From an uncultured virus (IMG/VR IMGVR_UViG_3300010355_001052) (taxonomy: Duplodnaviria > Heunggongvirae > Uroviricota > Caudoviricetes), in the IMG/VR virus record IMGVR_UViG_3300010355_001052: a stretch of DNA of 64,000 nt; one strand, written 5' to 3'. The notes below the pieces were generated by a model, which saw only the letters and a list, made by a program, of their open reading frames with translations, was not told the DNA's origin and did not search any database. Position numbers and translations under genes: made by a program. Of this stretch, positions 3,242 to 37,486 are shown one piece after another; position 1 is the first letter of the stretch; each line of letters starts with the position of its first letter.

Positions 3242-4045
3242 ATGATATTAACTGATCAGCAATATAACACTATTGAACAAGACCTAAAATTAGGTATTTT
3301 AAATTTTACTGATATTGCTAAAAAATTAAATATATCAAGACCGACAGTAAGAGCTCATGCTAAAAGAATTGGTTTACATACAGGTAATAAAATAAGACTA
3401 AAATCTTATACCTTAAACGTAAATTATTTTGATAATATTGATACTCAAGAAAAAGCATATATTTTAGGACTTCTATATGCTGATGGTTGTAATACCAGAA
3501 GAGGTTTACAAATTGCATTAGTTGAAGAAGATAAAGAAGTTATTGAATTTGTTAAAGTACAATTAGGAGCTTCAAATAATTTAAAATTTATACCTGCAGC
3601 AAAACCTACTTGGAAAAATAAATGGGAACTTAGTATTAGTTCTATTGAATTAAGTAAAAATTTAAGTAAAGTAGGTTGTATACCTGCTAAATCATCAATA
3701 TTAAAGTTTCCTGATTTTATAAACTCTAACTTAATTCATCATTTTGTAAGAGGTTATTTTGATGGTGATGGTTCAATATGGTTACATAAAGGAGGTTGGC
3801 ATTCTTCATTTACATCAGCAAGTGAAGATTTCATATTATCTCTTCAAGATCTTTTAACAAAACAAGGTATTTATACTAAGCTTTATAAAACAGGAGTTAA
3901 AAAAACTTGTTTTCAAATTTTACTTGGAAGAAAATATGAAATAGAAAAACTTATGCTTTATTTATTTAATGGATCTACATTTTCTATGAAAAGAAAACGT
4001 CTTAAAATGGAAATGTTTTTAACTAATTGTAAATCAAGTAAATAA
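3242..4045 (+). CDS. free-standing LAGLIDADG homing endonuclease with N-terminal HTH
   Basis: two LAGLIDADG motifs (YILGLLYADGC, FVRGYFDGDGS); HTH DIAKKLNISRPTV. Confidence 0.9.
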   Translation: MILTDQQYNTIEQDLKLGILNFTDIAKKLNISRPTVRAHAKRIGLHTGNKIRLKSYTLNVNYFDNIDTQEKAYILGLLYADGCNTRRGLQIALVEEDKEVIEFVKVQLGASNNLKFIPAAKPTWKNKWELSISSIELSKNLSKVGCIPAKSSILKFPDFINSNLIHHFVRGYFDGDGSIWLHKGGWHSSFTSASEDFILSLQDLLTKQGIYTKLYKTGVKKTCFQILLGRKYEIEKLMLYLFNGSTFSMKRKRLKMEMFLTNCKSSK

Positions 4046-5821: not shown

Positions 5822-6226
5822 ATGAAAATTAAGAAAAAAATCTGTAGTTGTTGTGGTAAGGAATCCGTCATCTGGAAAAATGATGATGGCAACAAATACT
5901 GCAAACCTTGTTGGATGAGTAAATCTTCTACAACAAAACCTGTTGAGCCTAGACAAAAGTTAGCACAAAGATCAGATAAGAGAATTGAACAAGATAAGAT
6001 CTACTCTGAGAAACGTAAAAACTTCTTAGAAGAACATCCTATGTGTCAAATTCACATATCTGGTATTTGTACAACTTACTCAACAGATGTGCACCATACT
6101 TATGCCGGTGCCAATAGAAATGAATTTTATTTAGATGAATTAACCTGGAAGGCTACATGTAGAATGTGCCATGGTTGGGTTCATGCTAATCCTAAACAAT
6201 CAAGAGAAATGGACCTCTTAAAGTGA
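5822..6226 (+). CDS. HNH-like nuclease with N-terminal zinc ribbon
   Basis: CSCC and CKPC; CQIHISGICT, DVHH, CRMCHGWVH; ATG at 5822 preferred over GTG at 5795. Confidence 0.7.
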   Translation: MKIKKKICSCCGKESVIWKNDDGNKYCKPCWMSKSSTTKPVEPRQKLAQRSDKRIEQDKIYSEKRKNFLEEHPMCQIHISGICTTYSTDVHHTYAGANRNEFYLDELTWKATCRMCHGWVHANPKQSREMDLLK

Positions 6227-9703: not shown

Positions 9704-10792
9704 ATGATAAGCAAAGATGAGATCCAAGACCAATGTCTTGAAGTAGTACTACCTCTGAGAAGATGTGGTGCAGCCTTAAGCATGGGAGTTGGTAAAACAC
9801 TCATTGGCTTAAGACATATGGATGAAAATTACAATGATTATTCAAAGTTTTTAGTAGTGGCTCCTAAAATATCAGTTCTTAATGAATGGACAGATCAAGC
9901 TATTAAGCATGATCTACCTCATCTGGTACCTCATATTACTAAAACAACCTATTTATCTTTACCTAAGCAGTCTCTTGATTATGATGTAGTGTATTTGGAT
10001 GAATGTCATTCATTAACACCAGCTCATTTAGTATGGTTATCTGAATTTAAAGGTAAAATATTAGGTTTAACCGGTACACCGCCTAAGAATAAAACTTCAC
10101 CAAAAGCTATTCTTGTTTCTCAGTTTTGTCCAATTGTATTTAATTACAAAACAGATAAAGCTATTAAAGACAAGATTCTTAATGATTATAGTATTATTGT
10201 TCATCTATTAAAAATGGATGTAGCTCAGACTATGAAAGTTGAGAATAATGGTAAGGTTTGGTTTACATCTGAAGCCGCGACTTATAAGTACTGGTCTGGA
10301 AGATTAGACAATGCTAATCCTGGTAAGGATAGACAAATTATGGCTGTAATGAGAATGAAAGCCTTAATGACTTTTCCTAGTAAAGAAAGATTAGCTAAAG
10401 AGATCTTAAATGAAGCAGAGGATAAAATAATCCTATTTGCTAATACTCAAGAGCAAGCTGATAGTTTCGGTATTCTTAGTTATCATAGTAATAATCCAAA
10501 ATCAGAAGAAAATCTGAATTTGTTTAAAGCTGGAAAAATTAAGAAACTATCTTGTGTACTACAATTAAGTGAAGGAGTTAATATTCCAAATCTTAAAGAA
10601 GGTATAATTATGCATTCTTATGGTAATGAGCGTAAAAGTCAACAAAGAATTGGTAGACTTTTAAGGCTTAATCCGGAAGAAGAATCCTTAATTCATATAC
10701 TGTGTTATAAAGATACTGTAGATGAATTCTGGGTAAAAGCAGCAATTGAAGGGTTGGATCAATCTAAGGTTACATGGCAAGATGAATATTAG
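9704..10792 (+). CDS. superfamily 2 (DExH) helicase
   Basis: MGVGKT, DECH, LTGT and QRIGR motifs. Confidence 0.9.
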   Translation: MISKDEIQDQCLEVVLPLRRCGAALSMGVGKTLIGLRHMDENYNDYSKFLVVAPKISVLNEWTDQAIKHDLPHLVPHITKTTYLSLPKQSLDYDVVYLDECHSLTPAHLVWLSEFKGKILGLTGTPPKNKTSPKAILVSQFCPIVFNYKTDKAIKDKILNDYSIIVHLLKMDVAQTMKVENNGKVWFTSEAATYKYWSGRLDNANPGKDRQIMAVMRMKALMTFPSKERLAKEILNEAEDKIILFANTQEQADSFGILSYHSNNPKSEENLNLFKAGKIKKLSCVLQLSEGVNIPNLKEGIIMHSYGNERKSQQRIGRLLRLNPEEESLIHILCYKDTVDEFWVKAAIEGLDQSKVTWQDEY

Positions 10793-12566: not shown

Positions 12567-13730
12567 ATGAACATGAATACAACAAATGAATCTTTATCAC
12601 AGTCAACTATTGATACACCAGTATCTCCATCACCTGCTGGTTCTTCTATTTCCGGTTCTTCTATTTCTGATGCAGTAATTGTTGAGGAACAAGCAAAAGA
12701 AGAAGACCCTAATCTTGGAGAAATGGGTAATGAAAGAAAAGCCACAGAAGGCTATGTTTACATGGATCGCGTTAAGGACATCCTTGATGTTTCTATGAAA
12801 ACAGGAAAAAATGTTATTCTTTACGGTCCAGGTGGATATGGTAAATCAGAATTTACTCTTGATTTCTTGAGAGAAGCTGGTATTGAACCATATGTTATCA
12901 CTATGGGTACTGGTATGACTACAGACCGTATGTTTGGTGGTTTAAATATTCCTACCTTTAATACAACAGGTAAGATTGAGTATCTTATTGAAAACTCATT
13001 CATGCACCATGAATTTGTGATCTTTGAGGAGTTATTTGATGCTCCTGACTTTATCCTTGAGCAATTAAAGGATATCTTAAGCTCAGGTGTATTCAGAAAT
13101 GGTACTCAGATCTTTGAGATCAAAACTAAACTGATCATTTGCTGCACCAATAAAACGCGTGAGGAATTCTCTAAGAATAACTCATTAAAAGCGTTGATGG
13201 AGCGTTTTCCACTTGAAGCAAAAGTAGATTGGAAAGATCATAACAAAATCTCATATGAGAATTTGTTTAAAGTGAAGTTGGGACATGCTGATCCAATGTT
13301 GTCTTATATCCTGGAGCAATATGCTGTAGGTGGTATTAAAATCAGTCCAAGGATTGCTCTTGCTGCTCATGAAGTTCTTGATCAGTGTGGTCCGGAAGCT
13401 TTGATGCATATTGCGGATCTGAACACTAAGCCAGAGATCCTGAAATCTGCAATTGCTAAGTTCAACAGCTTAATTGAAGTTACAAAATTGGCTAATGAAA
13501 TGGCTGAGTATGCAATGAAAATTAACCTGTGTCCACTTGACACAATGGAAAGTGTTAAAGAAGCAAGTGCACTTAACAAAGACTTGTTCAATTGTATCAC
13601 TAAAATGAAAGCAATTAAAGCTGATGATTCAATTGTTGCTACAACAGCTGAAGCTATCAAGACTTATTCTGGTATTTATGAAAATATCAAGAAAAAACTT
13701 GCAATCATTATGACTATTGACAATGAGTAA
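12567..13730 (+). CDS. MoxR/RavA-like AAA+ ATPase
   Basis: GPGGYGKS; Walker B variant IFEELFDAP; sensor CTN; ALMERF arginine finger. Confidence 0.85.
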   Translation: MNMNTTNESLSQSTIDTPVSPSPAGSSISGSSISDAVIVEEQAKEEDPNLGEMGNERKATEGYVYMDRVKDILDVSMKTGKNVILYGPGGYGKSEFTLDFLREAGIEPYVITMGTGMTTDRMFGGLNIPTFNTTGKIEYLIENSFMHHEFVIFEELFDAPDFILEQLKDILSSGVFRNGTQIFEIKTKLIICCTNKTREEFSKNNSLKALMERFPLEAKVDWKDHNKISYENLFKVKLGHADPMLSYILEQYAVGGIKISPRIALAAHEVLDQCGPEALMHIADLNTKPEILKSAIAKFNSLIEVTKLANEMAEYAMKINLCPLDTMESVKEASALNKDLFNCITKMKAIKADDSIVATTAEAIKTYSGIYENIKKKLAIIMTIDNE

Positions 13731-15129
13731 ATATAGCTATGGTCGCGGCGCAGGCTTCAACTATGGTGGTCGTAGTAAATATGATTACGATGATGACTAC
13801 TATGGTGGAGGCTACAAATCTAAATACGGTAATTCGTATTCTAGTGGATGGAGCTGGGGTAATTTTGGTAGCAGTTTCTCTTATGCTGAAGAAGATGATG
13901 ATGATGATCTCTACATCAAAAATCATGAGAGTTATTTTACACCAAAAAACTCTGTAATCTCAGATAAACTTAAACATTCTGAGAATACAAAACACAACCG
14001 CCAGCTCATAAAAGAGATGTCCCGGTATTTTTTCTACAATATGATGGCTGATAAAGAATATTTTGATGAAAAATATGCTGATCACACCAAACTTACTGAA
14101 GATGAAATAGCACAGTTTGAACAGAAAAAATCATTTTATGATGATCTCTGGGATAAATTTGTACCTGGGTTAACACCTCTTGATAAAGCATTGGCAATAT
14201 TTGCCAAGCTTGTTGAGGAAAAGAAAGATCAAACAGGACAAGCAAAAGGTGATGTAGATGAAACTCAATTGGATGTGAATGAAATTCAATTCCATGAAGA
14301 GATCTACAATGATCCTGTATTTAATGAGTTACTTGATTCAAATCATTTCTCTAAGCAACATAAAATGGACATTCTGAACAAGATTAGTCTAATAAAGAAC
14401 CTTGGATCTCAGTTTAAAATTGAGAAAGAAATTGAAGAGAAAATAGTAGCCAATTCTCAGATTATCACTAAGAAAATCATGCGTGATTATTCTCAACTTG
14501 GTAATATTGATCTTTATCAGAAACTAATGCCAACATTTAACTTAAAGCTCCTTACTAAGGATCTTATTGTTAATGTACCGGTAGATAGAACTGAGCACAA
14601 ACAAAAGATTATTATTCTAGTAGATTATAGTGGTTCAATGCATGAAAAAGAGAAGCAAGAATGGGTAGTTGCTCTTATGGTAGACAGATTGAGATATGTT
14701 ATTAAAGAAGAAGCTGAAGTTTTCTTTAGTTATTTCATTAATGATATCTCTCAAATGAAATTTCATCATCTTTATAACAGAAAAACTGTTATGGATTTTT
14801 GGATGCAATTCTCTACTGAACCAAATGGAGGAGATACAAGATTAGGTGTTATGGTTAACCATATCAAAGAATCTATATCTAAAAAACAATTACACAATCT
14901 TAATGTGGATCTTAGTGAAGAGATGCCAGAAATATTAGCTATTAATGATGGTCAGGACAGTGTAAAAACTAATCAGTTTGTTTATAAAACAAATGCAATT
15001 AGTGTTATGGATGGTCCTAATAAAGATCTGAAAAAGCTATGTGTTGCCAATGACGGTAAATATGTTTACGTTAGTGGTAAAGAAGCTAAAACTTGGTCTA
15101 AAGCCGGGGAACAACTTCTGAAAATATAA
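13723..15129 (+). CDS. VWA-domain protein, partner of the upstream AAA+ ATPase
   Basis: MIDAS DYSGSM, GGDT, NDG; G/Y/S-rich N-terminal tail. Confidence 0.85.
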   Translation: MSKYSYGRGAGFNYGGRSKYDYDDDYYGGGYKSKYGNSYSSGWSWGNFGSSFSYAEEDDDDDLYIKNHESYFTPKNSVISDKLKHSENTKHNRQLIKEMSRYFFYNMMADKEYFDEKYADHTKLTEDEIAQFEQKKSFYDDLWDKFVPGLTPLDKALAIFAKLVEEKKDQTGQAKGDVDETQLDVNEIQFHEEIYNDPVFNELLDSNHFSKQHKMDILNKISLIKNLGSQFKIEKEIEEKIVANSQIITKKIMRDYSQLGNIDLYQKLMPTFNLKLLTKDLIVNVPVDRTEHKQKIIILVDYSGSMHEKEKQEWVVALMVDRLRYVIKEEAEVFFSYFINDISQMKFHHLYNRKTVMDFWMQFSTEPNGGDTRLGVMVNHIKESISKKQLHNLNVDLSEEMPEILAINDGQDSVKTNQFVYKTNAISVMDGPNKDLKKLCVANDGKYVYVSGKEAKTWSKAGEQLLKI

Positions 15130-15137
15130 GAATATAT

Positions 15138-15223
15138 CCCTGTACGGTTAAATAATATTTGTGGGTTTATGATATTTCAAATATCTGATAACAATAACAA
15201 GTTGATAATACGACAGGGGCCCA
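15138..15223 (+). ncRNA. putative structured RNA sharing a module with the downstream tRNA-like RNA
   Basis: closing stem CCCTGT-CG/CG-ACAGGG; inner TTAT-GATAT/ATATC-TG-ATAAC; CCA shortly after the stem. Confidence 0.45.
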
Positions 15224-15228
15224 TTGAG

Positions 15229-15262
15229 CAGCTCTCTTAGGAAACTAGGAGAGCTGTTTTTT
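15229..15262 (+). terminator. intrinsic terminator
   Basis: CAGCTCTCTTAG-GAAA-CTAGGAGAGCTG plus T6. Confidence 0.8.
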
Positions 15263-15267
15263 ATTAA

Positions 15268-15374
15268 GGAGGTTGTAGTTCAAAGGTAGAATACTATGCT
15301 TGGGATTATGGTTTTTATAACCTGATAACGAAAAGACAACATAGAGATTAGTGGTTCGAGTCCATGAACCTTCA
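15268..15374 (+). tRNA. tRNA-like RNA (possibly Pro-TGG) with a 41-nt anticodon loop
   Basis: acceptor GGAGGTT/AACCTTC; D arm GTTC-AAAGGTA-GAAT; anticodon stem CTATG/CATAG; T arm GTGG-TTCGAGT-CCAT; loop begins CT-TGG-GA. Confidence 0.6.
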
Positions 15375-15399
15375 CAATTATTAATTAATTTAAAAATGT

Positions 15400-15939
15400 A
15401 TGAATAAATTATTTGTAGGATTAATACTTTTTCTATTTTACTTAGGTGCTCTGATTATGATGAGCTTCCAAAAAGAAGAATCAGTTCCTGTAATAGGTGA
15501 CTGGAAATATTCTTTTATTATTCCAGTAGATACAAGTTATGTTTCTACTACAATGACTTATTACCCAACATTTGATCAGTGTGATTCTACTCCATGGAGT
15601 ACAGCTGATCACTCTAAAATTGACCCGGTAAAACTCCGGAAAAAAGAAATTAAATGGCTAGCATTATCTCGTGATCTTATATGGGATGAAGAAAGACAAA
15701 AACTTTATAAAGATACTACTCATTGGAGGGGTCCTTATCCATTTGGATCAGTTCTTTATCTTAAAAGTTCCAGTAAACCCTGGATAAATGGTCATTGGAC
15801 TGTACATGATTGTAAAGGTCCAAGTTATGAAAACAGTATTGACTTACTTGTGGATCCAAGAAACAACAAACCAAAGTTAGGTATCTGTAGAGACATAATG
15901 GTCATTGGATATCAACTTAGAAAAAAACTAAACTTATGA
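15400..15939 (+). CDS. membrane-anchored 3D/RlpA-like double-psi-barrel protein (putative peptidoglycan lytic enzyme)
   Basis: N-terminal TM; TYY, QCD, STAD, ALSRDL, VHD and IDL pattern. Confidence 0.6.
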   Translation: MNKLFVGLILFLFYLGALIMMSFQKEESVPVIGDWKYSFIIPVDTSYVSTTMTYYPTFDQCDSTPWSTADHSKIDPVKLRKKEIKWLALSRDLIWDEERQKLYKDTTHWRGPYPFGSVLYLKSSSKPWINGHWTVHDCKGPSYENSIDLLVDPRNNKPKLGICRDIMVIGYQLRKKLNL

Positions 15940-16340
15940 AAAGACTATTTTTAGATGATCACAGAGTTCCTCCTGATTGTGCCCAATACATGTACTCAAG
16001 AGGTGTTAATTGTACAGTTTACCATGAAGAATGGGTAATAGTAAGATCATATGGTCAGTTTATTAAGTGGATTGAAGAAAATGGTCTACCTGATCTTATA
16101 GCATTTGATCATGATCTTGCAGATGTTCCTGAACTTAAGGAAACACTTCCTTTAGAGGAGTGGTTTGATCTAGAAAATTCTAGAGAATATACAGGTATGG
16201 ATTGTGCTAGATGGTTAGCTAATTATTGTTCTCAAAAAGGACTAAAATTACCAGAATATTCAGTACATTCAATGAATCCACAAGGTTATCTAGATATCAA
16301 GGATTACTTGAAAAATGTTAAGAAACACCTTAATTTATAA
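15936..16340 (+). CDS. cyclic-phosphate-processing receiver-like domain protein
   Basis: LFLDDHR, FDHDL, TGMDCARWL and HSMNPQG motifs. Confidence 0.75.
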   Translation: MKRLFLDDHRVPPDCAQYMYSRGVNCTVYHEEWVIVRSYGQFIKWIEENGLPDLIAFDHDLADVPELKETLPLEEWFDLENSREYTGMDCARWLANYCSQKGLKLPEYSVHSMNPQGYLDIKDYLKNVKKHLNL

Positions 16341-17151: not shown

Positions 17152-18246
17152 ATGAGTGCAGAAAAAATTAGTCTCTTCTATAAGGAAGGGAGTTCAGATA
17201 AAGTATATAATCTTGAATTAGTTACAACAGGAAAAACTTGGGATGTAAATTATCAATATGGTAGACGAGGTAGTTCATTAACTACAGGTCAGAAAATTAG
17301 TACTACTGATTATTATAAAGCTAAATTAGCGTATGATAAAATAGTAACTGAAAAAATATCTAAAGGGTATCAAGTCTTTACTAATACTTTTTCACCTTAT
17401 ACACCTTATAATTCTGGTGGTGCAATAGCTCCAACTTCAGAAGATACCGGTATCAGACCACAACTTCTAAATGAAATAGAAGAAGAAGATCTTGAGAAAT
17501 ATATCACTGATGATAATTGGTGTGCACAAGAAAAATTTGATGGTAGAAGAAGACTACTGATTAAACAAGGTACTAAAGTAAAAGGTACTAACCGTAAAGG
17601 ATTAGTTGTTGGTATTACATCTAACATAGAAAATGATTTGCTTAAGTTAGATGTACCTTCTATTATTCTTGATGGTGAAGCTTTTGATGACCGCGTTATG
17701 ATATTTGACTCATTAGGTGAGAATTTACCTTATAAAGAAAGATATCAGAAAATGTTGAATTTACTTAATCAATATGAAGAAAAAAGCATTATCCCGGTAT
17801 CAACAGCTTGGACCACTGAAGACAAAAGAGAATTATTAAAATGTCTTAGAAGATGTAATGCAGAAGGTATTGTATTTAAGAATATACATTCTACATACAA
17901 ACCTGGAAGACCTAACTCAGGTGGTGATCAACTTAAATTCAAATTTGTTACTACAGCATCATGTATTGTAGGTAGAATAAATGCCGGTAAAAGATCTGTT
18001 GCATTAACAGTATATGATTCTGAATTTAAATTGGTTGAAATTGGTAATGTAACCATATATCCTAATCAAGATGTTCCCAAATTGGGAGAAATTGTTGAAG
18101 TAAGATATCTTTATTACTTTGATAAAGGTAGTTTATTTCAACCTGTACTACTAGGTACCGGTGATTGCTCAAGGGATGATATTGATCTAAAAGATTGTTT
18201 ATTATCCAAACTAAAATTAAAAAGACAAGAAGTATTAAGTGAGTAA
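17152..18246 (+). CDS. WGR-domain ATP-dependent DNA ligase
   Basis: N-terminal SDKVY...YGRRG...EKISKGY (WGR-like); ligase motifs QEKFDG, LDGE, EGIVFK, KFK. Confidence 0.85.
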   Translation: MSAEKISLFYKEGSSDKVYNLELVTTGKTWDVNYQYGRRGSSLTTGQKISTTDYYKAKLAYDKIVTEKISKGYQVFTNTFSPYTPYNSGGAIAPTSEDTGIRPQLLNEIEEEDLEKYITDDNWCAQEKFDGRRRLLIKQGTKVKGTNRKGLVVGITSNIENDLLKLDVPSIILDGEAFDDRVMIFDSLGENLPYKERYQKMLNLLNQYEEKSIIPVSTAWTTEDKRELLKCLRRCNAEGIVFKNIHSTYKPGRPNSGGDQLKFKFVTTASCIVGRINAGKRSVALTVYDSEFKLVEIGNVTIYPNQDVPKLGEIVEVRYLYYFDKGSLFQPVLLGTGDCSRDDIDLKDCLLSKLKLKRQEVLSE

Positions 18247-23527: not shown

Positions 23528-24953
23528 ATGGAAGAAAACAAGTTAGCAGCAGTAAATGAAGAAGAAAAAATGAGAACTACTAATTTTCTTATGACCTTAA
23601 TTGAGTCAAAGAAATTACCAGCTCATATTAAAAACGTTGAAGAAGCGTTTACTATTGCCCAAATGGGTAAAGAACTAGGCTTTCCTACAATGCAAGCCTT
23701 CCATTACATTATCCCTATCCAGGGAAAACTAAGCCTAAGTGCAAAAGCAGTTGGCGCGTTACTAAGAAAAGGTGGCGTAAAATATAGCACAAGAGAAGAT
23801 GGTGTTTATGTTTATAAAGATGGTTCTACCAGCGATATTCTTAAAGCTGATGAAAAACCAATAGACAGAAGAACAACCATTATTTTTTACAGAGAAAATA
23901 TAGAGGAGATCTGCAGTTTCACATGGAAAGATGCTGAACTACAAGGTCTTACGACAAAAGATAATTGGAAAAGAATGCCTAAATAGCTTGGGCATGTAAA
24001 ACTGGGTGAACTGTCTGGAAGGCTAAGTCAGAAATGATAAGTTAATCAGCAGCCAAACTACTAAAGATCATAAAGTAAGTAGGAGGTTCAACGCATAGAT
24101 GGTGAGTAGATCACACAATAATCCATCCACGAGTGCCCAGTACATAGATTATGGCATTTCAGAAATAAATACTATCTTTGTAAGATGGAAATAGAAATCT
24201 GGAAGCCTTTAAAAGATTATGAAGGATTATATGAAGTAAGTAACATGGGTAGAGTTAGATCATTAATAAAACGTGGTAATGCAAAACAAAAAATCAGAAA
24301 AACTGGTTTTGATATTCGCACAGGTTATATTACGGTTCAACTTACAAAAAACAACAAACCTCTAACTAAAAGAGTACATAGATTTGTTGCTGAAACCTTT
24401 GTACCAAACCCAATGAATAAACCTGTTGTAAACCACATTGATGGTAATAAAAAAAACAATAAAGGTTCTAACTTGGAATGGATGACTTATTCAGAAAATA
24501 CTTTACATTCTTTTAAAAATGGACTTCAAAAAAAGATTTTTGGTGATTATAATTATATCACTAAAATTAAAACACAGGATGTTCTCAAAATAAGAGAGCT
24601 AATTAATTTAGGTAAAACTAATAGGGAGATAGCCAAAATATATGGTGTAAATCCATCTCAGATATCTAGAATTAAAACTGGTAAAAGAAGAAAAGAGCTA
24701 TGTAATGATATATGCTGAACTTATGGGAAACCATAAGAACCGGAGAATAAAAAGTCACCGGGGTAACAAATTGAAGGAAATGCTTTTTGCAAGATGTCTT
24801 GCTAAAGGATCTAATAGGATTGGTCCAGATTTATTATTAGGTTTGTATACTACTGAAGAATTAGCTGATACCTTCATTAAAAATGAAAGTCAGATCAAAA
24901 GACATGAAGATGGTACAATAGCGGAAATAATTTTAGATCAGGAGAATAACTAA
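23528..24953 (+). CDS. RecT/Red-beta-like single-strand annealing protein, spliced (exons 23528-23980 and 24774-24953, 210 aa)
   Basis: splicing restores KDNWKRMP-KEMLFARCLAK...GLYTTEEL in frame. Confidence 0.75.
23981..24773 (+). mobile_element. group I intron (793 nt) carrying an HNH endonuclease
   Basis: P1 ATGCCT/GGGCAT with U-G at the 5' splice site; AATCAGCAGCC; P3 ACTGGGTG/TGCCCAGT; P7 GCATA/TATGC; terminal G at 24773. Confidence 0.85.
24185..24718 (+). CDS. intron-encoded NUMOD4-HNH homing endonuclease
   Basis: EIWKP...YEVSNMGRVRS; VHRFVA...VNHIDGNKKNN...NLEW; C-terminal HTH. Confidence 0.92.
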   Translation: MEIEIWKPLKDYEGLYEVSNMGRVRSLIKRGNAKQKIRKTGFDIRTGYITVQLTKNNKPLTKRVHRFVAETFVPNPMNKPVVNHIDGNKKNNKGSNLEWMTYSENTLHSFKNGLQKKIFGDYNYITKIKTQDVLKIRELINLGKTNREIAKIYGVNPSQISRIKTGKRRKELCNDIC

Positions 24954-25680: not shown

Positions 25681-26670
25681 ATGTTAAGTACAAAATCATT
25701 AATATCAGAATTAAGTGAAATACCAAGAGAATGGGTTTTTGAGTTTTATCTAAAACTAGATGAAAGATTATGTGGCCAAGATGTGAGAATAAAATCCCCA
25801 TTTAACCCATCAGATAAAAACCCATCATTCTATGTTCACTTTTCTAGAAGTTTGAATAAGTATATTTTTAAAGACTTTTCAACTGATAAAAAAGGAGATG
25901 GAATAACCTTAGTACAATCTCTTTTAGATTTAAGTACAAGAGGTGAAGCAGCATACAAAGTAATTTCAGATTATAACCAATTTATCCTTAATAATAATGA
26001 GGATTATAGTCTAAGAGATTTTAAAATTCAACAAAAGTATAAAGTAACTGATTGGAAAGTTGGAAACTGGACTAATGTTGATCAAAAATATTGGACTAAG
26101 TTCCATATAGGTTCTAAACTGTTAGAACAATATAATGTAAAACCACTTGACTCATATAAAATGACCAAGGAAGAAGATGGTAAATTACATGAACTTGAAA
26201 TTAAAGGTAAATACTGTATCTATGGTTATTTTAGATCTGACGGTTCCCTTTATAAAATCTATCAACCTTTAGTTAAAGACAATAAATTTATTAAAGTCAA
26301 AGACTATATCCAAGGTACGGATCAGTTAAATTACGCTTCAGAATATTTAGTAATTCTAAGTTCACTTAAAGATATTTTAGGGTTTAAGAAATTAGGTTAC
26401 ACCGGTATTGAAGCAATTGCTCCAGATAGTGAAAACAATCTTATTCCAAGTAATGTAATGACTTCCTATAAATTAAAATTTAAAGGAATCTGTACTTTAT
26501 TTGATAATGATAAAGCAGGTATTGAAGCAATGCAAAAATATACTGATAAGTATCAAGTTAAAGGTATTGTATTACCTCTATCTAAAGATCTTACTGATTC
26601 CATGAAAGATCATGGTCTTAGTAAAGTAAAAACAGAATTGAATAATTTACTAAAAGAAGCATTAACATGA
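25681..26670 (+). CDS. DNA primase (TOPRIM)
   Basis: SPF...DKNPSF...FKDF N-terminal domain; FDNDKAG and KDLTD. Confidence 0.85.
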   Translation: MLSTKSLISELSEIPREWVFEFYLKLDERLCGQDVRIKSPFNPSDKNPSFYVHFSRSLNKYIFKDFSTDKKGDGITLVQSLLDLSTRGEAAYKVISDYNQFILNNNEDYSLRDFKIQQKYKVTDWKVGNWTNVDQKYWTKFHIGSKLLEQYNVKPLDSYKMTKEEDGKLHELEIKGKYCIYGYFRSDGSLYKIYQPLVKDNKFIKVKDYIQGTDQLNYASEYLVILSSLKDILGFKKLGYTGIEAIAPDSENNLIPSNVMTSYKLKFKGICTLFDNDKAGIEAMQKYTDKYQVKGIVLPLSKDLTDSMKDHGLSKVKTELNNLLKEALT

Positions 26671-27092
26671 GTTGGATTTATAACGGTGTTGTCTTTACAG
26701 ATGAAATGATACCAGATGGTGCAGTAGGATTTATTTATGAAATGTCTACTATACTAAATGGTCAATCATATTCATATGTAGGTAAGAAAAACTTCCATGC
26801 TAGTATCAAGAAGAAGATTGGTAAAAAAGCTATGCCTACTGATAAAAGAATGAAAAAATACACCAGGGTAAGTAAAGCTTCTTATCAAAATTATTACAGT
26901 AGTAATGAAACTCTTAAGAAAGCCCATAAAGATGGTAACTTAATTAAAAGAACAATACTTAAAATATGCTTTAGTAAAACTGAACTTACCTATAACGAGG
27001 TAAAGTATCAGTTTACTTTAGGTGTATTAGAGAATGACCGTTATTTAAATGGTAATATTCTTGGTAGATTTTACAAACAAAATAAAATATGA
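26667..27092 (+). CDS. short GIY-YIG-family nuclease
   Basis: GFIY...YVGKK; YYSS; conserved E and NGNI. Confidence 0.65.
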   Translation: MSWIYNGVVFTDEMIPDGAVGFIYEMSTILNGQSYSYVGKKNFHASIKKKIGKKAMPTDKRMKKYTRVSKASYQNYYSSNETLKKAHKDGNLIKRTILKICFSKTELTYNEVKYQFTLGVLENDRYLNGNILGRFYKQNKI

Positions 27093-28291
27093 GATCAGAA
27101 CAATTAGCAAGAATTAGTAAAGATCTAATGCTCCGGGAACCATTTTATGGACTGTTCCTTATGATGCTGAATAAAGTCTGGAGTAAATCTGTTCCTACTG
27201 CAGGTGTAGGTAAAAATGGTATAAATTATCATCTTTATCTTAATGAACTCTTTTGGGATAGTCTAGTAGATAATACTAGAAGGGGTCTTCTAAAACATGA
27301 ACTCTTACACATAGGTTTTTTTCACATTACAGACTACAAGCATCTTAAAGATCCTCTTCTTAAAAACTTAGCAATGGATCTTGAAGTTAACCAGTATATA
27401 GATCCTGATGATTTACCTCCTAATCCTGTACTACTATCTTCCTATCCAGAATTAAAACTCAATCCTAAAGCAGGAACTCTCTATTATTATGAGAAACTAA
27501 TGCAAGGAGCTAAAGATGGTAGTTGTCCTAATCTTAATGCTACAATTGAAGCTAACGGATCAGGTAAACAGTCCTGTGAGATTGTTGCAGGAAACGGAAC
27601 CGGTACATTAGATATCCCAGATCATAAATCATGGGCTGAGTTTGATTGTCTTGATGAAGCAACACAAAAGCTCATTAAAAAACAAACTGAGTATATTCTT
27701 AAGGAAGTAGCTGAACAAGTTACTAAATCTAGAGGAACTGTTCCTGGAGAATTTAAAGACATCCTTGATGAAATTAATAGAGTTGACCCACCAAAATTTG
27801 ATTGGAGGTCATATCTAAGGAGATTTATAGGAGGATCCACAAAGATCTATACTAAGAAATCCCGGAGAAAGTATAATAAAAGATACTTTGAAAACCCAGG
27901 TTTAAAGATTAAACCTAAACGCCATATTCTAGTAGCTATTGATACATCAGGATCAGTAAGCAAAGAAGAATTAAATGAATTTTTACATGAGATTTATCAC
28001 ATGCAAAAAACCGGTTCTGAAATAACTATTGTTCAATGTGACTCAGCAATAAGTCATATTGGAAAATATAATCATAGGGAAGAATTTCAGATCTATGGTA
28101 GAGGAGGAACTTCATTTGATCCGGTACTAGATTATTACAATGAAAATACTCACAAGTATACATGTCTTATTTATTTAACTGATGGTGAAGCTCCCGCTCC
28201 AGATCCAGCTAAAGGAAGAATGTTATGGGTAATGAGTAGCAAATCAAAATTAAATGAGAACCTAATTGGTCCTCAAATAAAACTTAATTAA
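27089..28291 (+). CDS. metallopeptidase-like plus VWA protein (DUF2201-type)
   Basis: HELLH...NLAMDLEVN; MIDAS DTSGS, GGTSF, LTDG. Confidence 0.85.
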   Translation: MRSEQLARISKDLMLREPFYGLFLMMLNKVWSKSVPTAGVGKNGINYHLYLNELFWDSLVDNTRRGLLKHELLHIGFFHITDYKHLKDPLLKNLAMDLEVNQYIDPDDLPPNPVLLSSYPELKLNPKAGTLYYYEKLMQGAKDGSCPNLNATIEANGSGKQSCEIVAGNGTGTLDIPDHKSWAEFDCLDEATQKLIKKQTEYILKEVAEQVTKSRGTVPGEFKDILDEINRVDPPKFDWRSYLRRFIGGSTKIYTKKSRRKYNKRYFENPGLKIKPKRHILVAIDTSGSVSKEELNEFLHEIYHMQKTGSEITIVQCDSAISHIGKYNHREEFQIYGRGGTSFDPVLDYYNENTHKYTCLIYLTDGEAPAPDPAKGRMLWVMSSKSKLNENLIGPQIKLN

Positions 28292-29575
28292 ATGAGTAAA
28301 AAAATAGAAAATAAGTTAGTAAACCTACACATCGAGGAGTTAAAATCTTTTTTAACTCATATCATAAATAATAACAGATTTCTACAATCTCAAGGTAAAG
28401 TACCGGTTACAGTAAACGTAGAGGGAAATGCAGGTCTTGGTAAAACATCTGCTATTGCACAACTTGCAAATGAATTAGGAATTAACTTTATCCGAGTTAA
28501 CCTGGCAATGATTGAAGAACTAGGTGATCTAGTTGGTTTTCCTGTAAGACAATTTGAGTTGTGTAAACAAGAAACCAAAAACGTGTATACTCCTAAAACA
28601 GTAACTACTGCTGCAGGTCCAAAAACTGTAGATGTTATGGTACCTCAGACTGTAACTGTAGAAGGATCCTGTATGTGGGTTGATGAACATGCTGTAGATG
28701 AATATCTAAAACATGGTTATACATTTACCGGTGAAAAACAGATGACATATTGCCCACCAGAATGGATTGTTGGTCTAGGTGATAAAGGAGGTATTCTTCT
28801 ATTAGATGATTATTCCCGCGCAGACTCAAGATTCATACAAGCATGTATGACATTGATTGAGACACAGAAATATATCAGCTGGTCATTACCACAAGACTGG
28901 CATATTATCCTTACTACAAATCCGGATGATGGTGAGTATCTCGTTACACCAATGGATATTGCACAAAAGACAAGATTTATTTCAGTAAATCTTAAGTTTG
29001 ATGTACAATCCTGGGCAAGATGGGCTGAGTCACAAGGAGTAGATGGAAGATGTATTAACTTCTTGTTGATGCATCCTGAATTAGTCACTCCGGAAACTAA
29101 TCCAAGAAGTATAACAACCTTCTTTAATGCTATTAGTTCAATACCAAGTTTTATTGATGATTTACCACTTATTCAAATGATTGGTGAAGGGTCAGTAGGA
29201 ACTGAGTTTTCTACATTATTTACAGCATTCATTAATCATAAGTTAGATAGATTGATCACACCAAAAGATCTTTTACTACATGATAATGAAGCTCATGTAA
29301 TGGGTGAATTAGCTGGGTGTATTGGAAGCGGACCAAGTTACCGCGCTGATATAGCAAGTACACTTGTAACTAGGTTAATAAATTTTGCAGTTAAATATGC
29401 AGAAGAACATACTATACCGCAAAAAACAATTGATAGATTAATCAAAATTTCTACTTCTGAAACTTTGACTTATGATCTTAAGTATCATCTTGTAAAGAAG
29501 ATCCTTAATGGTAATAAACAAAAGTTCCAGGGAATTATGATGAATAAAGATGTTGTTGTAATGGCTATGAAATAA
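28292..29575 (+). CDS. MoxR-like AAA+ ATPase
   Basis: GNAGLGKT, LLDDYSRA, TTNP, AQKTRF and NPRS motifs. Confidence 0.85.
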   Translation: MSKKIENKLVNLHIEELKSFLTHIINNNRFLQSQGKVPVTVNVEGNAGLGKTSAIAQLANELGINFIRVNLAMIEELGDLVGFPVRQFELCKQETKNVYTPKTVTTAAGPKTVDVMVPQTVTVEGSCMWVDEHAVDEYLKHGYTFTGEKQMTYCPPEWIVGLGDKGGILLLDDYSRADSRFIQACMTLIETQKYISWSLPQDWHIILTTNPDDGEYLVTPMDIAQKTRFISVNLKFDVQSWARWAESQGVDGRCINFLLMHPELVTPETNPRSITTFFNAISSIPSFIDDLPLIQMIGEGSVGTEFSTLFTAFINHKLDRLITPKDLLLHDNEAHVMGELAGCIGSGPSYRADIASTLVTRLINFAVKYAEEHTIPQKTIDRLIKISTSETLTYDLKYHLVKKILNGNKQKFQGIMMNKDVVVMAMK

Positions 29576-36416: not shown

Positions 36417-36796
36417 AGAAACAACTTAATGCAGTAAAGGAATTCCATGAAAAGTTTAAACAAACTAATGGAGAACAACCTCAATTACTTACTGAAGATG
36501 ATTATATCTTAAGATATAAGTTAATGAATGAGGAAAATCTTGAGTATTTTGAAGCATGTGAAAAAAAAGATCTTGTTGAAATTGCTGACGCTCTAGGTGA
36601 CCAATTATATATTCTATGTGGTACCATTTTAAAACATGGTTTACAACATAAAATAGAAGAAGTATTTGATGAAATTCAAAGATCAAATATGAGTAAACTG
36701 GGAGAAGATGGAGAACCAATTATTAGACCTGATGGTAAAATTATGAAAAGTAAGTTATATGAAAAACCTAACATAAGTGGGATTTTAGGTCTTTAA
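36413..36796 (+). CDS. MazG-like / PRA-PH-family NTP pyrophosphohydrolase
   Basis: EENLEY...EIADALGDQLY...SNMSK...DGKIMK. Confidence 0.85.
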   Translation: MKKQLNAVKEFHEKFKQTNGEQPQLLTEDDYILRYKLMNEENLEYFEACEKKDLVEIADALGDQLYILCGTILKHGLQHKIEEVFDEIQRSNMSKLGEDGEPIIRPDGKIMKSKLYEKPNISGILGL

Positions 36797-37486
36797 TAAT
36801 ATCCATCCTTTACATTTACCTTTTGATATTAAATTTGAAGAATGTAGATTATTATTTCTACAAAATTCATTAAGATTATTAATAGTAATCTGTTTACCTT
36901 CTGGAGATACAAGAATCCAGTTCTTAGTATGAATAGATTTTTGTATATGATCTTGTAAGAGTTCTGGATTACATAACTTTTTTTGCCAGGTTAGTTTATT
37001 AGTTAATGAACTTTTTTCTTTTGTAATGAGAGAAGTAAATTTTCCGTAGTTCCAATGACCCTTACCAGATCTTTTAAGAGACTGTTGTTTTTTTAATTCA
37101 GAAGTTCTCTTTTTACCTAAATTAGCTAAAGAAATTTTATCTTTTGTAATTTGAGATAATTTAACACCTATTCTTGGATGAATAGAGTATCTAATTGCTT
37201 TAGAAATCACTCTATTATTCCATATTTTAGGTTTATCTAAAACTTTAAGTCTAGTTAATACTTTAATCTCCCACATAATAGCATCTTCTTTATTAGAGAA
37301 TTCTTTTCTTACTTGGTAATCAAAAGCTTTTTTACCATATTTTAATATGAGTTCTTTAATAATATTACTTGATGTAAAATATTTAATCCAAAGATCATCA
37401 TTAGGAGAGACTTTATTACCCCAACGTACACCATAATAATGAGTATTATTAATTTTACATTTTATAAGATAAGTGTATGCATTCAT
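36785..37486 (-). CDS. free-standing GIY-YIG homing endonuclease with NUMOD3-like repeats
   Basis: YTYLI...YYGVR...YFTSS; basic repeats TKDKISLAN and HWNYGK; TATTTTTG element at 37491-37498 (- strand). Confidence 0.85.
   Translation of the reverse strand: MNAYTYLIKCKINNTHYYGVRWGNKVSPNDDLWIKYFTSSNIIKELILKYGKKAFDYQVRKEFSNKEDAIMWEIKVLTRLKVLDKPKIWNNRVISKAIRYSIHPRIGVKLSQITKDKISLANLGKKRTSELKKQQSLKRSGKGHWNYGKFTSLITKEKSSLTNKLTWQKKLCNPELLQDHIQKSIHTKNWILVSPEGKQITINNLNEFCRNNNLHSSNLISKGKCKGWILLKT

Follow-up and report, generated by a model that had tools for sequence, protein, structure and literature searches.

Transfer RNA (tRNA) genes with an enlarged anticodon loop and tRNA-shaped RNAs that do not decode are known from several systems. 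The closest in print among the literature found are the "enigmatic" tRNA introns of Lak megaphages (Devoto et al. 2019, PMC6784885). According to the sections of that paper that were available, these phages of Bacteroidota carry an insert in the anticodon loop of tRNA genes; only intron-aware programs detect these genes, and there is no known mechanism by which they would be spliced. The same holds for the element studied here, a 107-nt tRNA-shaped gene at positions 15268-15374 of the IMG/VR virus record IMGVR_UViG_3300010355_001052; the whole stretch of 64,000 nt that was analysed is called the window below.

The nearest functional analogy is with the t-elements of plant mitochondria (Forner et al. 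2007, PMC1920247). In the available part of that report they are, like the window element, non-decoding tRNA-like folds situated between genes, and they were proposed to direct the RNase P and RNase Z cuts that make transcript ends. YrlA, as far as the accessible text describes it (Chen et al. 2014, PMC4201824), has a permuted order of its parts, namely T arm, closed acceptor-like stem and D arm. No description of elements like the present one in crAss-like phages was found in the literature within reach, which did not extend to bioRxiv supplements and most subscription journals. In the available text of the main comparative paper on crAss-like phages (PMC7886860), the terms "tmRNA" (transfer-messenger RNA) and "tRNA-like" do not occur and the tRNA passages are on suppressor tRNAs only; a term look-up in the accessible portion of PMC12386605 likewise gave no description of such elements.

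In this work, the window element and the related loci of other phages were analyzed by comparative genomics. The 107-nt element is a real tRNA-derived gene that is non-decoding as written. We tentatively propose that it is a tRNA-derived mimic that would be excised by the host RNase P and RNase Z. A cutting mark, a stable RNA or a decoy is more likely here than a spliced tRNA; the latter has a small chance and would be a major surprise.

A tRNA-shaped gene with a 41-nt anticodon loop

The element is composed of the following parts, with the source of each assignment in parentheses.

15268..15374, plus strand: tRNA-shaped gene, 107 nt, with a 41-nt anticodon loop (Rfam RF00005, ARAGORN -i)
15268..15274, plus strand: 5' strand of the acceptor stem, GGAGGTT, 7/7 pairs with 15367-15373 (sequence, ARAGORN drawing)
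15275..15277, plus strand: acceptor/D junction GTA, 3 nt, with U8 and A9 present (sequence)
15278..15292, plus strand: D arm GTTC/AAAGGTA/GAAT, with A14, A15, G18 G19 and A21 (sequence, Rfam, ARAGORN)
15293, plus strand: A26 (sequence)
15294..15298, plus strand: 5' strand of the anticodon stem, CTATG, five Watson-Crick pairs with 15340-15344 (sequence, Rfam, ARAGORN)
15299..15339, plus strand: 41-nt loop replacing the 7-nt anticodon loop; its first 7 nt are CTTGGGA and its last are GACAA
15305..15328, plus strand: imperfect hairpin in the loop, ATTAT-GGTT / TTTAT / AACC-TGATAA (RNAfold)
15340..15344, plus strand: 3' strand of the anticodon stem, CATAG (sequence, Rfam, ARAGORN)
15345..15349, plus strand: variable loop AGATT, with U48 able to pair with A15 (sequence)
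15350..15366, plus strand: T arm AGTGG/TTCGAGT/CCATG, 4/5 pairs, A49-G65 mismatch (sequence, Rfam, ARAGORN)
15367..15374, plus strand: 3' strand of the acceptor stem, AACCTTC, and discriminator A (15374) (sequence)

The acceptor stem GGAGGTT/AACCTTC is paired at all seven positions, one of them a G-T pair, and the D stem of 4 bp belongs to a class I scaffold. All nucleotides of the tertiary elbow and core can be read directly in the sequence: U8, A14, A15-U48, G18 G19, and the T-loop TTCGAGT. Compared with a canonical tRNA, the element has the cloverleaf arms and the tertiary nucleotides but not the 7-nt loop with a 3-nt anticodon. Because 41 nt stand in place of that loop, the element is unable to read codons as encoded; the insert region lengthens the anticodon arm into a long imperfect hairpin. 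The junction between the acceptor stem and the D arm is one base longer than the usual 2 nt. The Rfam register, which begins at 15269, keeps a 2-nt junction at the cost of two non-standard acceptor pairs. The discriminator A at 15374 is directly followed by CAA, so that CCA is not encoded.

The Rfam tRNA model scores the element at 30.9 bits versus a gathering score of 29, and its alignment contains 37 inserted bases where the model has 3. No other Rfam family exceeds its cut-off in the 64 kb. With all 4227 families searched the E-value is 0.018; in the near-identical record G001, searched with the tRNA model only, it is 3.8e-6. When introns are allowed, ARAGORN reports a tRNA at 15268-15375 with seven of seven acceptor pairs, a 3-nt junction and a 34-nt "intron"; in its default mode, without introns, it reports no gene. 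No open reading frame (ORF) of at least 40 aa overlaps 15130-15399. An earlier note, made from the letters alone, had described a tRNA scaffold with recognizable acceptor, D and T arms, the stem CTATG/CATAG and a 41-nt loop at 15299-15339, all of which are present in the sequence. The additional junction base and the lack of an encoded CCA that it listed are confirmed by GTA and CAA, respectively, and both the Rfam score and the intron-aware ARAGORN gene agree with its scaffold.

Removal of 34 contiguous bases from the loop leaves CU-GAC-AA, CU-UAC-AA, CU-UGC-AA or CU-UGG-(A/G)A, all equally legal. Since the loop begins with CU and ends with AA, the anticodon is undefined among GAC, UAC, UGC, and UGG, and the ARAGORN label "Val(TAC)" is an arbitrary choice among these. 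The "Pro-like" loop start of the earlier note thus holds as a legal UGG reading but not as the only one of the four. The matches of the D arm and T loop are not informative for the isotype: 31 cellular tRNAs with the same D arm and T loop include 21 Asn, 5 with the anticodon TCA, 1 Gly, 1 Gln, 1 Val, and 2 archaeal intron-bearing tRNAs. Two contigs of archaeal metagenome-assembled genomes (L112 and L115) carry tRNA genes with 15-16-nt introns and the same D arm as the window element; this match is taken as a coincidence of a common D arm.

The hairpin in the insert is not clearly better than chance. The RNAfold energy of the 41-nt loop is -7.3 kcal/mol versus -4.0 +/- 2.2 in 1000 shuffles, and the unconstrained fold of the whole 107-nt RNA is no stabler than its shuffles (z -0.44). 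The pairing of TTAT with ATAA and of GGTT with AACC, proposed as a fold in the earlier note, does exist; RNAfold, however, favours a near-equivalent register, and 8.5% of the shuffles are as stable. Within the 64-kb window there is no second copy of the insert and no stretch complementary to it over more than 11 nt.

The homologue search that the earlier note had suggested did not bring up a diverged relative, and in the databases covered neither the scaffold nor the insert of the window element seems to have one. In IMG/VR, there were 0 matches to the 5' half of the element as an exact pattern and 0 to the D arm and T loop spaced 40-70 nt apart. The insert hairpin pattern gave 4 matches, all in coding-looking DNA without a tRNA, and these were taken as chance. 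No tRNA-like match at E<=1 was found at the six loci with the protein most similar to the VWA protein encoded upstream of the element. Homologues of the downstream ORF were found at 10 metagenomic loci, of which 1 is identical; the other 9 (50-56% identity) have no tRNA match. Three independent wastewater strains from different studies are near-identical, and the element has 0 differences among them versus approximately 1.5 expected from the flank, the latter being an estimate. Eight variable positions fall in 14741-15200 and none in 15201-16300. In the single RNA run searched, a small share of the sequence words was present but nothing mapped to 14700-16300, which speaks neither for nor against expression.

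The MoxR-VWA locus and its relatives

The window is a crAss-like phage. Its G+C content is 31%, the coding strand switches near 38 kb, and three giant ORFs, of 1957, 3629, and 2379 aa, lie on the minus strand. The DNA runs containing it come from activated-sludge and wastewater metagenomes of many studies. The following features were assigned around the element.

9704-10792: helicase
12567-13730: MoxR-type AAA+ ATPase
13717-15129: VWA protein
15226..15265, plus strand: intrinsic-terminator-like hairpin of 15 pairs (6 G-C) with a T-run
15400-15939: 179-aa ORF with a hydrophobic N-terminus
15936-16340: cREC protein ("cyclic-phosphate processing receiver"), PF20274, E 4e-19 (Pfam)
between the cREC gene and the NinB-like ORF: 131-aa ORF with no usable match
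between the 131-aa ORF and the ligase: NinB-like 137-aa ORF
17152-18246: WGR and LigD-like ATP-dependent DNA ligase
after the ligase: UDG

The tRNA-like gene lies on the coding strand, 139 nt after the stop codon of the VWA gene, a few bases after the terminator and 25 nt before the ATG at 15400. The terminator hairpin has a predicted energy of -19.8 kcal/mol, and 1 such site was found versus 0.2 +/- 0.4 in shuffles.

The VWA protein has 589 homologues, one of the closer ones at 73% identity, and an alignment of 25 was used to fetch 66 IMG/VR loci. These loci cover at most 4 kb on each side of the VWA gene, and the small-RNA counts on the coding strand are lower bounds. The MoxR and VWA genes are syntenic in nearly all 66 loci. 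ARAGORN found a tmRNA in at least 24 of them; a tRNA or tRNA-like gene is present in at least 32, a tRNA-like gene of 90 nt or more in at least 19, and either a tmRNA or a tRNA-like gene in at least 45. On 36 of the parent records, the Rfam tRNA model gave 49 matches in 27 records, including 13 oversized matches (94-144 nt) spread over 12 records. The normal-sized matches are mostly one conserved tRNA-Met(CAT), which accounts for 12 of the 20 ARAGORN genes in the regions fetched.

The oversized elements possess near-invariant tRNA-Leu-like class II scaffolds with conserved D and T arms, and their acceptor stems are of the types AGTCAGG/CCTGACT, GATTGAG/CTCAATC, and TCCAGAG/CTCTGGA. The stretch from the D arm to the T arm ranges from 19 to 97 nt among 30 distinct elements. 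The anticodon regions of this family are hypervariable, whereas the scaffolds covary. An alignment was made of 20 sequences that include three ordinary tRNAs; the window element, L002 and the family members with an insertion in the D loop are not in it. Of the cells of the acceptor, D and T stems, 97.6% are paired. Two-sided changes occur at 12 of the 15 pairs, a result matched by 0 of 500 shuffles, and slid controls show 33-40% pairing.

The same D arm and middle part are found joined to different acceptor stems (L042:1235-1331 versus L061:7564-7659; L045:6428-6496 versus L066:4305-4373). The scaffold is therefore constrained separately from the middle, and this combination suggests either modular exchange or position-wise gene conversion of the acceptor stem. 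There are also inserts that different scaffolds share (L052 and L066 versus L097). Elements of the AGTCAGG type are located upstream of the tmRNA in 4 of 4 cases and those of the GATTGAG type downstream in 7 of 7. Elements also abut tmRNA genes, at a distance of 3 nt in L027 and 21 nt in L038. In L012, the elongated element has its D and T arms in common with a normal tRNA-Arg(TCT) of the same phage, and we infer from this that the oversized elements arose by remodelling of genuine phage tRNAs; a search for an allele of the L012 element without the insert returned the same two contigs only. The discriminator A is followed by C in 30 of 30 family elements and likewise in the window element. The acceptor types and the tRNA-Leu-like D arm of the family are absent from the window element, which is of class I with the acceptor strand GGAGGTT.

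Examples of the tmRNA genes at these loci are listed below; their tags end in VAA, LAA, or MAA. In the window itself, neither the tmRNA mode of ARAGORN nor Rfam finds a tmRNA, while both find tmRNAs in the relatives.

L010:6156-6479: tmRNA
L011:7061-7384: tmRNA
L023:5961-6353: tmRNA
L027:5569-5955: tmRNA
L033:7496-7821: tmRNA
L038:7700-8030: tmRNA
L066:4438-4865: tmRNA

A conserved motif of approximately 48 nt (AATAGCTAAGCTGTG...AGAAGCTA) lies directly 5' of AGTCAGG-type elements. It was not found in the window, and its sites in the relatives include the following.

L035:5305-5352: 48-nt motif
L032:5389-5436: 48-nt motif
L066:4257-4304: 48-nt motif
L042:1187-1234: 48-nt motif

Several further observations were made at the related loci. 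A conserved hairpin, ATCCCTGTGAATTATATTTGCAGGGAT, follows the VWA gene in relatives and is present only as a decayed trace in the window. Two family members, L010:6633-6818 and L016:1306-1432, carry an extra insertion in the D loop besides the enlarged anticodon region. L032 has a group I intron at 5897-6155 (91.8 bits in Rfam), in a non-coding island approximately 350 nt after its tRNA-like element. The tRNA-Met(CAT), the one ordinary tRNA common to most relatives, has its copies in L080-L087, L089, L090, L094, and L095 (G008, G020, G023, G028, G022, G019, G027, G009, G002, G036, G033, and G034), and most of them start with CGTGTG and have a C1-A72 mismatch, by which bacterial initiator tRNAs are typically recognized. 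A tRNA of the amber-suppressor type, with the anticodon CTA, is present in one relative. An ordinary tRNA-Pro(TGG) is found in one relative at 58% VWA identity.

The cREC gene is situated 560 nt downstream of the tRNA-like element in the same gene string. This stand-alone cREC protein is encoded among DNA replication and repair genes and not next to an RNA ligase. The accessible parts of two papers indicate that the cREC domain is predicted only, and not shown, to resolve 2',3'-cyclic phosphates (PMC7824862, PMC9503650). As a hint of RNA repair, cREC is a weak lead. An RNA repair cassette was considered and rejected: the ligase is of the DNA type, the 137-aa ORF (o137) is NinB-like, and the genes 3' of the window element are absent from the 66 related loci except for the near-identical record. 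A Y RNA with a Ro60-like partner was rejected as well. The VWA protein has a weak PHROG match annotated as "RNA-binding protein", and among the PDB chains listed for its structural model (pLDDT 73.8) all matches are to generic VWA domains; no Ro60 came up when PDB sequences were searched with a profile of this protein, and Rfam gave no Y RNA match at the element.

Elsewhere in the window, four ORFs of homing-endonuclease types were identified at 3242-4045, 24185-24718, 26667-27092, and 36785-37486 (minus strand); the types are LAGLIDADG, NUMOD4-HNH, and two SegE-like GIY-YIG. A second chaperone-like pair occupies 27089-29575 and consists of a metallopeptidase-VWA protein (DUF2201) followed by an AAA+ ATPase. 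This pair resembles a jumbo-phage pair described in the available text of PMC7824862.

Possible processing, decoy function, loss of function or splicing

The acceptor/T minihelix is required by RNase P and RNase Z, and the top half of a tRNA is read by RNase P, RNase Z, the CCA-adding enzyme, T-loop modifiers, and EF-Tu. We tentatively favour a processed mimic because the top half of the window element is intact, and constrained in the wider family, while the decoding part is destroyed. The acceptor/T/D top half would be the working part of the element. As both enzymes depend on the minihelix, the host RNase P would be expected to cut at 15267/15268 and RNase Z or an equivalent after A15374. 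These cuts would release a stable tRNA-shaped small RNA; they would also part the terminator read-through of the MoxR-VWA genes from the downstream message, whose 5' untranslated region would be the 25 nt before the ATG at 15400. Where elements abut the tmRNA, as in L027 and L038, cleavage by RNase P would trim the adjacent RNA. The non-decoding tRNA-like fold in an intergenic position on the coding strand is also what characterizes a t-element-like processing signal. The window element may be one of a loosely defined group of tRNA look-alikes without a decoding function that crAss-like phages keep, in many cases next to a phage tmRNA, and this copy may have been acquired or remodelled separately in its own phage lineage.

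Several points weigh against processing. There should be little read-through to process, because a strong terminator is located directly upstream, and no promoter was recognized near the element. With only one such element in 64 kb, it is not a general punctuation signal. Between the family members and the next ORF there are 21 to 1163 nt, and these distances do not single out a role at mRNA 5' ends. The acceptor sequences of the family are conserved more tightly than RNase P or RNase Z should need, which hints at another partner. The window copy gives no sign of purifying selection, since its scaffold and insert are found nowhere else and the nearest loci are empty; its invariance among the strains carries little weight, because only about 1.5 differences would have been expected in it and 15201-16300 as a whole does not vary.

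Alternatively, the tRNA body may provide processing and stability for a trans-acting RNA that either binds a host factor as a decoy or sponge or presents the 41-nt arm as a displayed module, and an anticodon nuclease or another tRNA-targeting defence, a modification enzyme or a synthetase may be the target. We consider this unlikely, although it has several facts on its side. The bases with which the loop opens, CTTGGGA, would make up an entire canonical anticodon loop and have been left in place, the relatives keep the scaffold sequence beyond what pairing demands, and the acceptor type tracks the position around the tmRNA, which suggests a sequence-specific partner. Recurrence of inserts in different scaffolds, the cREC gene nearby and the phage tRNAs known, from the accessible part of PMC11555353, to defeat tRNA-cutting defences point in the same direction. 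However, the neighbours other than cREC are DNA enzymes (the LigD-like DNA ligase, the NinB-like protein, and UDG), cREC and the other downstream genes are unlinked to tRNA-like genes in all 66 related loci, and the VWA neighbour is not Ro60-like. The earlier note had offered a tRNA used as a scaffold that displays an RNA module, for example a decoy for anticodon nucleases. The scaffold part of this proposal agrees with the intact L-shape core, the non-decoding loop and the covarying scaffolds of the relatives with their free anticodon regions, whereas the module or decoy part finds no support in the insert, for which neither a diverged relative, nor significant structure, nor a repeat, nor a target with more than 11 complementary nt in the window was found. 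The lack of significant structure in the insert would also suit an ordinary phage tRNA that received a 34-nt insertion and lost its function, an explanation that we likewise find unlikely. The element is lineage-specific with an empty slot in the nearest relatives, no constraint on it is demonstrable, and the T-stem mismatch and the extra junction base may be read as decay; yet all other stems and tertiary positions are intact, the insertion falls exactly within the loop and preserves the 5-bp stem, and many related phages maintain such an alteration under constraint, as seen from covariation. Identity of the element in strains of three studies is weak evidence in the same sense, and to our knowledge phage genomes rarely keep dead sequence.

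It is improbable that the element is a working tRNA, for Pro (UGG), Val (UAC or GAC) or Ala (UGC), whose 34-nt intron, situated at position 37/38 or close to it, is removed by a protein endonuclease before the halves are re-ligated; an intron was the explanation placed beside the scaffold in the earlier note. The ends of the loop fit (CU...AA), excision of 34 nt restores a legal 7-nt loop, and the remaining tRNA parts are intact. The clade uses tRNA-Pro(TGG), since the relative at 58% VWA identity has an ordinary copy, cREC and ligase genes follow downstream, and in the available sections of PMC6784885 the tRNA genes of Lak megaphages, which infect Prevotella, contain "introns" that are unexplained, some alleles carrying and others lacking them. 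An insert at 37/38 is compatible with the loop (CU-UGG-G, 34 nt, A), and four other cut positions are equally so. On the other hand, a bulge-helix-bulge could not be drawn by manual pairing, which yielded only 3 bp, CUU/AAG or UUG/CGA, with 6-8 unpaired bases on the 3' strand where the 3-4-3 motif calls for continuous helices, and 34 nt are far too short for a group I or group II core. The Rfam intron and ribozyme models gave no match at E<=10 in 15000-15700; the group I model RF00028, sensitive enough to detect the real intron of L032, has no match at the window element. At the thresholds used, 0 of the 55 ORFs of the window match the EndA, RtcB, Rnl, or PNK Pfam families, and the ligase at 17152-18246 is LigD-like and of the DNA type. 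The oversized loops of the wider family mostly do not start like an anticodon loop, and we know of no tRNA-splicing endonuclease in bacteria. A short tRNA intron, as the earlier note had envisaged, is thus left without a bulge-helix-bulge, a group I core, or a splicing enzyme family. That the 34 nt are a true intron cut by an as yet unrecognized protein endonuclease of the phage or host, with healing aided by cREC and the ligase, is improbable as well. If it were true, it would imply protein-dependent tRNA splicing or "unmasking" in bacteria, in which a masked tRNA is activated during infection, for example to escape an anticodon nuclease, and thereby a tRNA-splicing route new to bacteria.

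If crAss-like phages routinely keep non-decoding tRNA-shaped genes, then standard phage annotation misreads them, and tRNA finders either miss such genes or assign arbitrary anticodons to them. A layer of phage RNA biology would be opened that includes transcript processing, tmRNA maturation, and interference with host tRNA enzymes or defences. The window copy provides a simple test case: it is one element of only 107 nt, its tRNA core is clean and its insert small, and it lies between a terminator and an ORF start.

Comparison with known systems

The Lak megaphage tRNA introns differ from the window element in several respects. In the available sections of the corresponding paper (PMC6784885), the insert is longer, with 93 nt in a tRNA-Tyr gene, the single insert looked at, versus 34 nt in the crAss-like phage of the window. 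The Lak inserts are identical across cohorts, alleles with and without an insert occur, and one insert may encode a tRNA, whereas no insert-less allele of the window element was found. The t-elements belong to a different system with different host enzymes, and according to the accessible text (PMC1920247) their cleavage sites have been mapped, whereas the cuts at the ends of the window element are proposed; the latter keeps a full cloverleaf core with an enlarged anticodon arm. YrlA, in the part of the report that was available (PMC4201824), ends in a Ro60-binding stem and its gene lies beside that of Ro60, while the window element ends in an acceptor stem.

Like the window element, tmRNA is tRNA-like with a large insert separating the two halves of the tRNA, and it is encoded near the same gene pair in at least 24 of the 66 relatives. 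In contrast to tmRNA, the window element has a full D arm and anticodon stem and lacks a tag reading frame and pseudoknots. The oversized elements of crAss-like phages have class II scaffolds and are usually located beside a tmRNA, whereas the window element is of class I, without a tmRNA and without a sequence relative. The two have in common the phage order, the proximity to the MoxR-VWA genes, the strand and the A-C 3' context, as well as an intact top half combined with an altered or lengthened anticodon arm.

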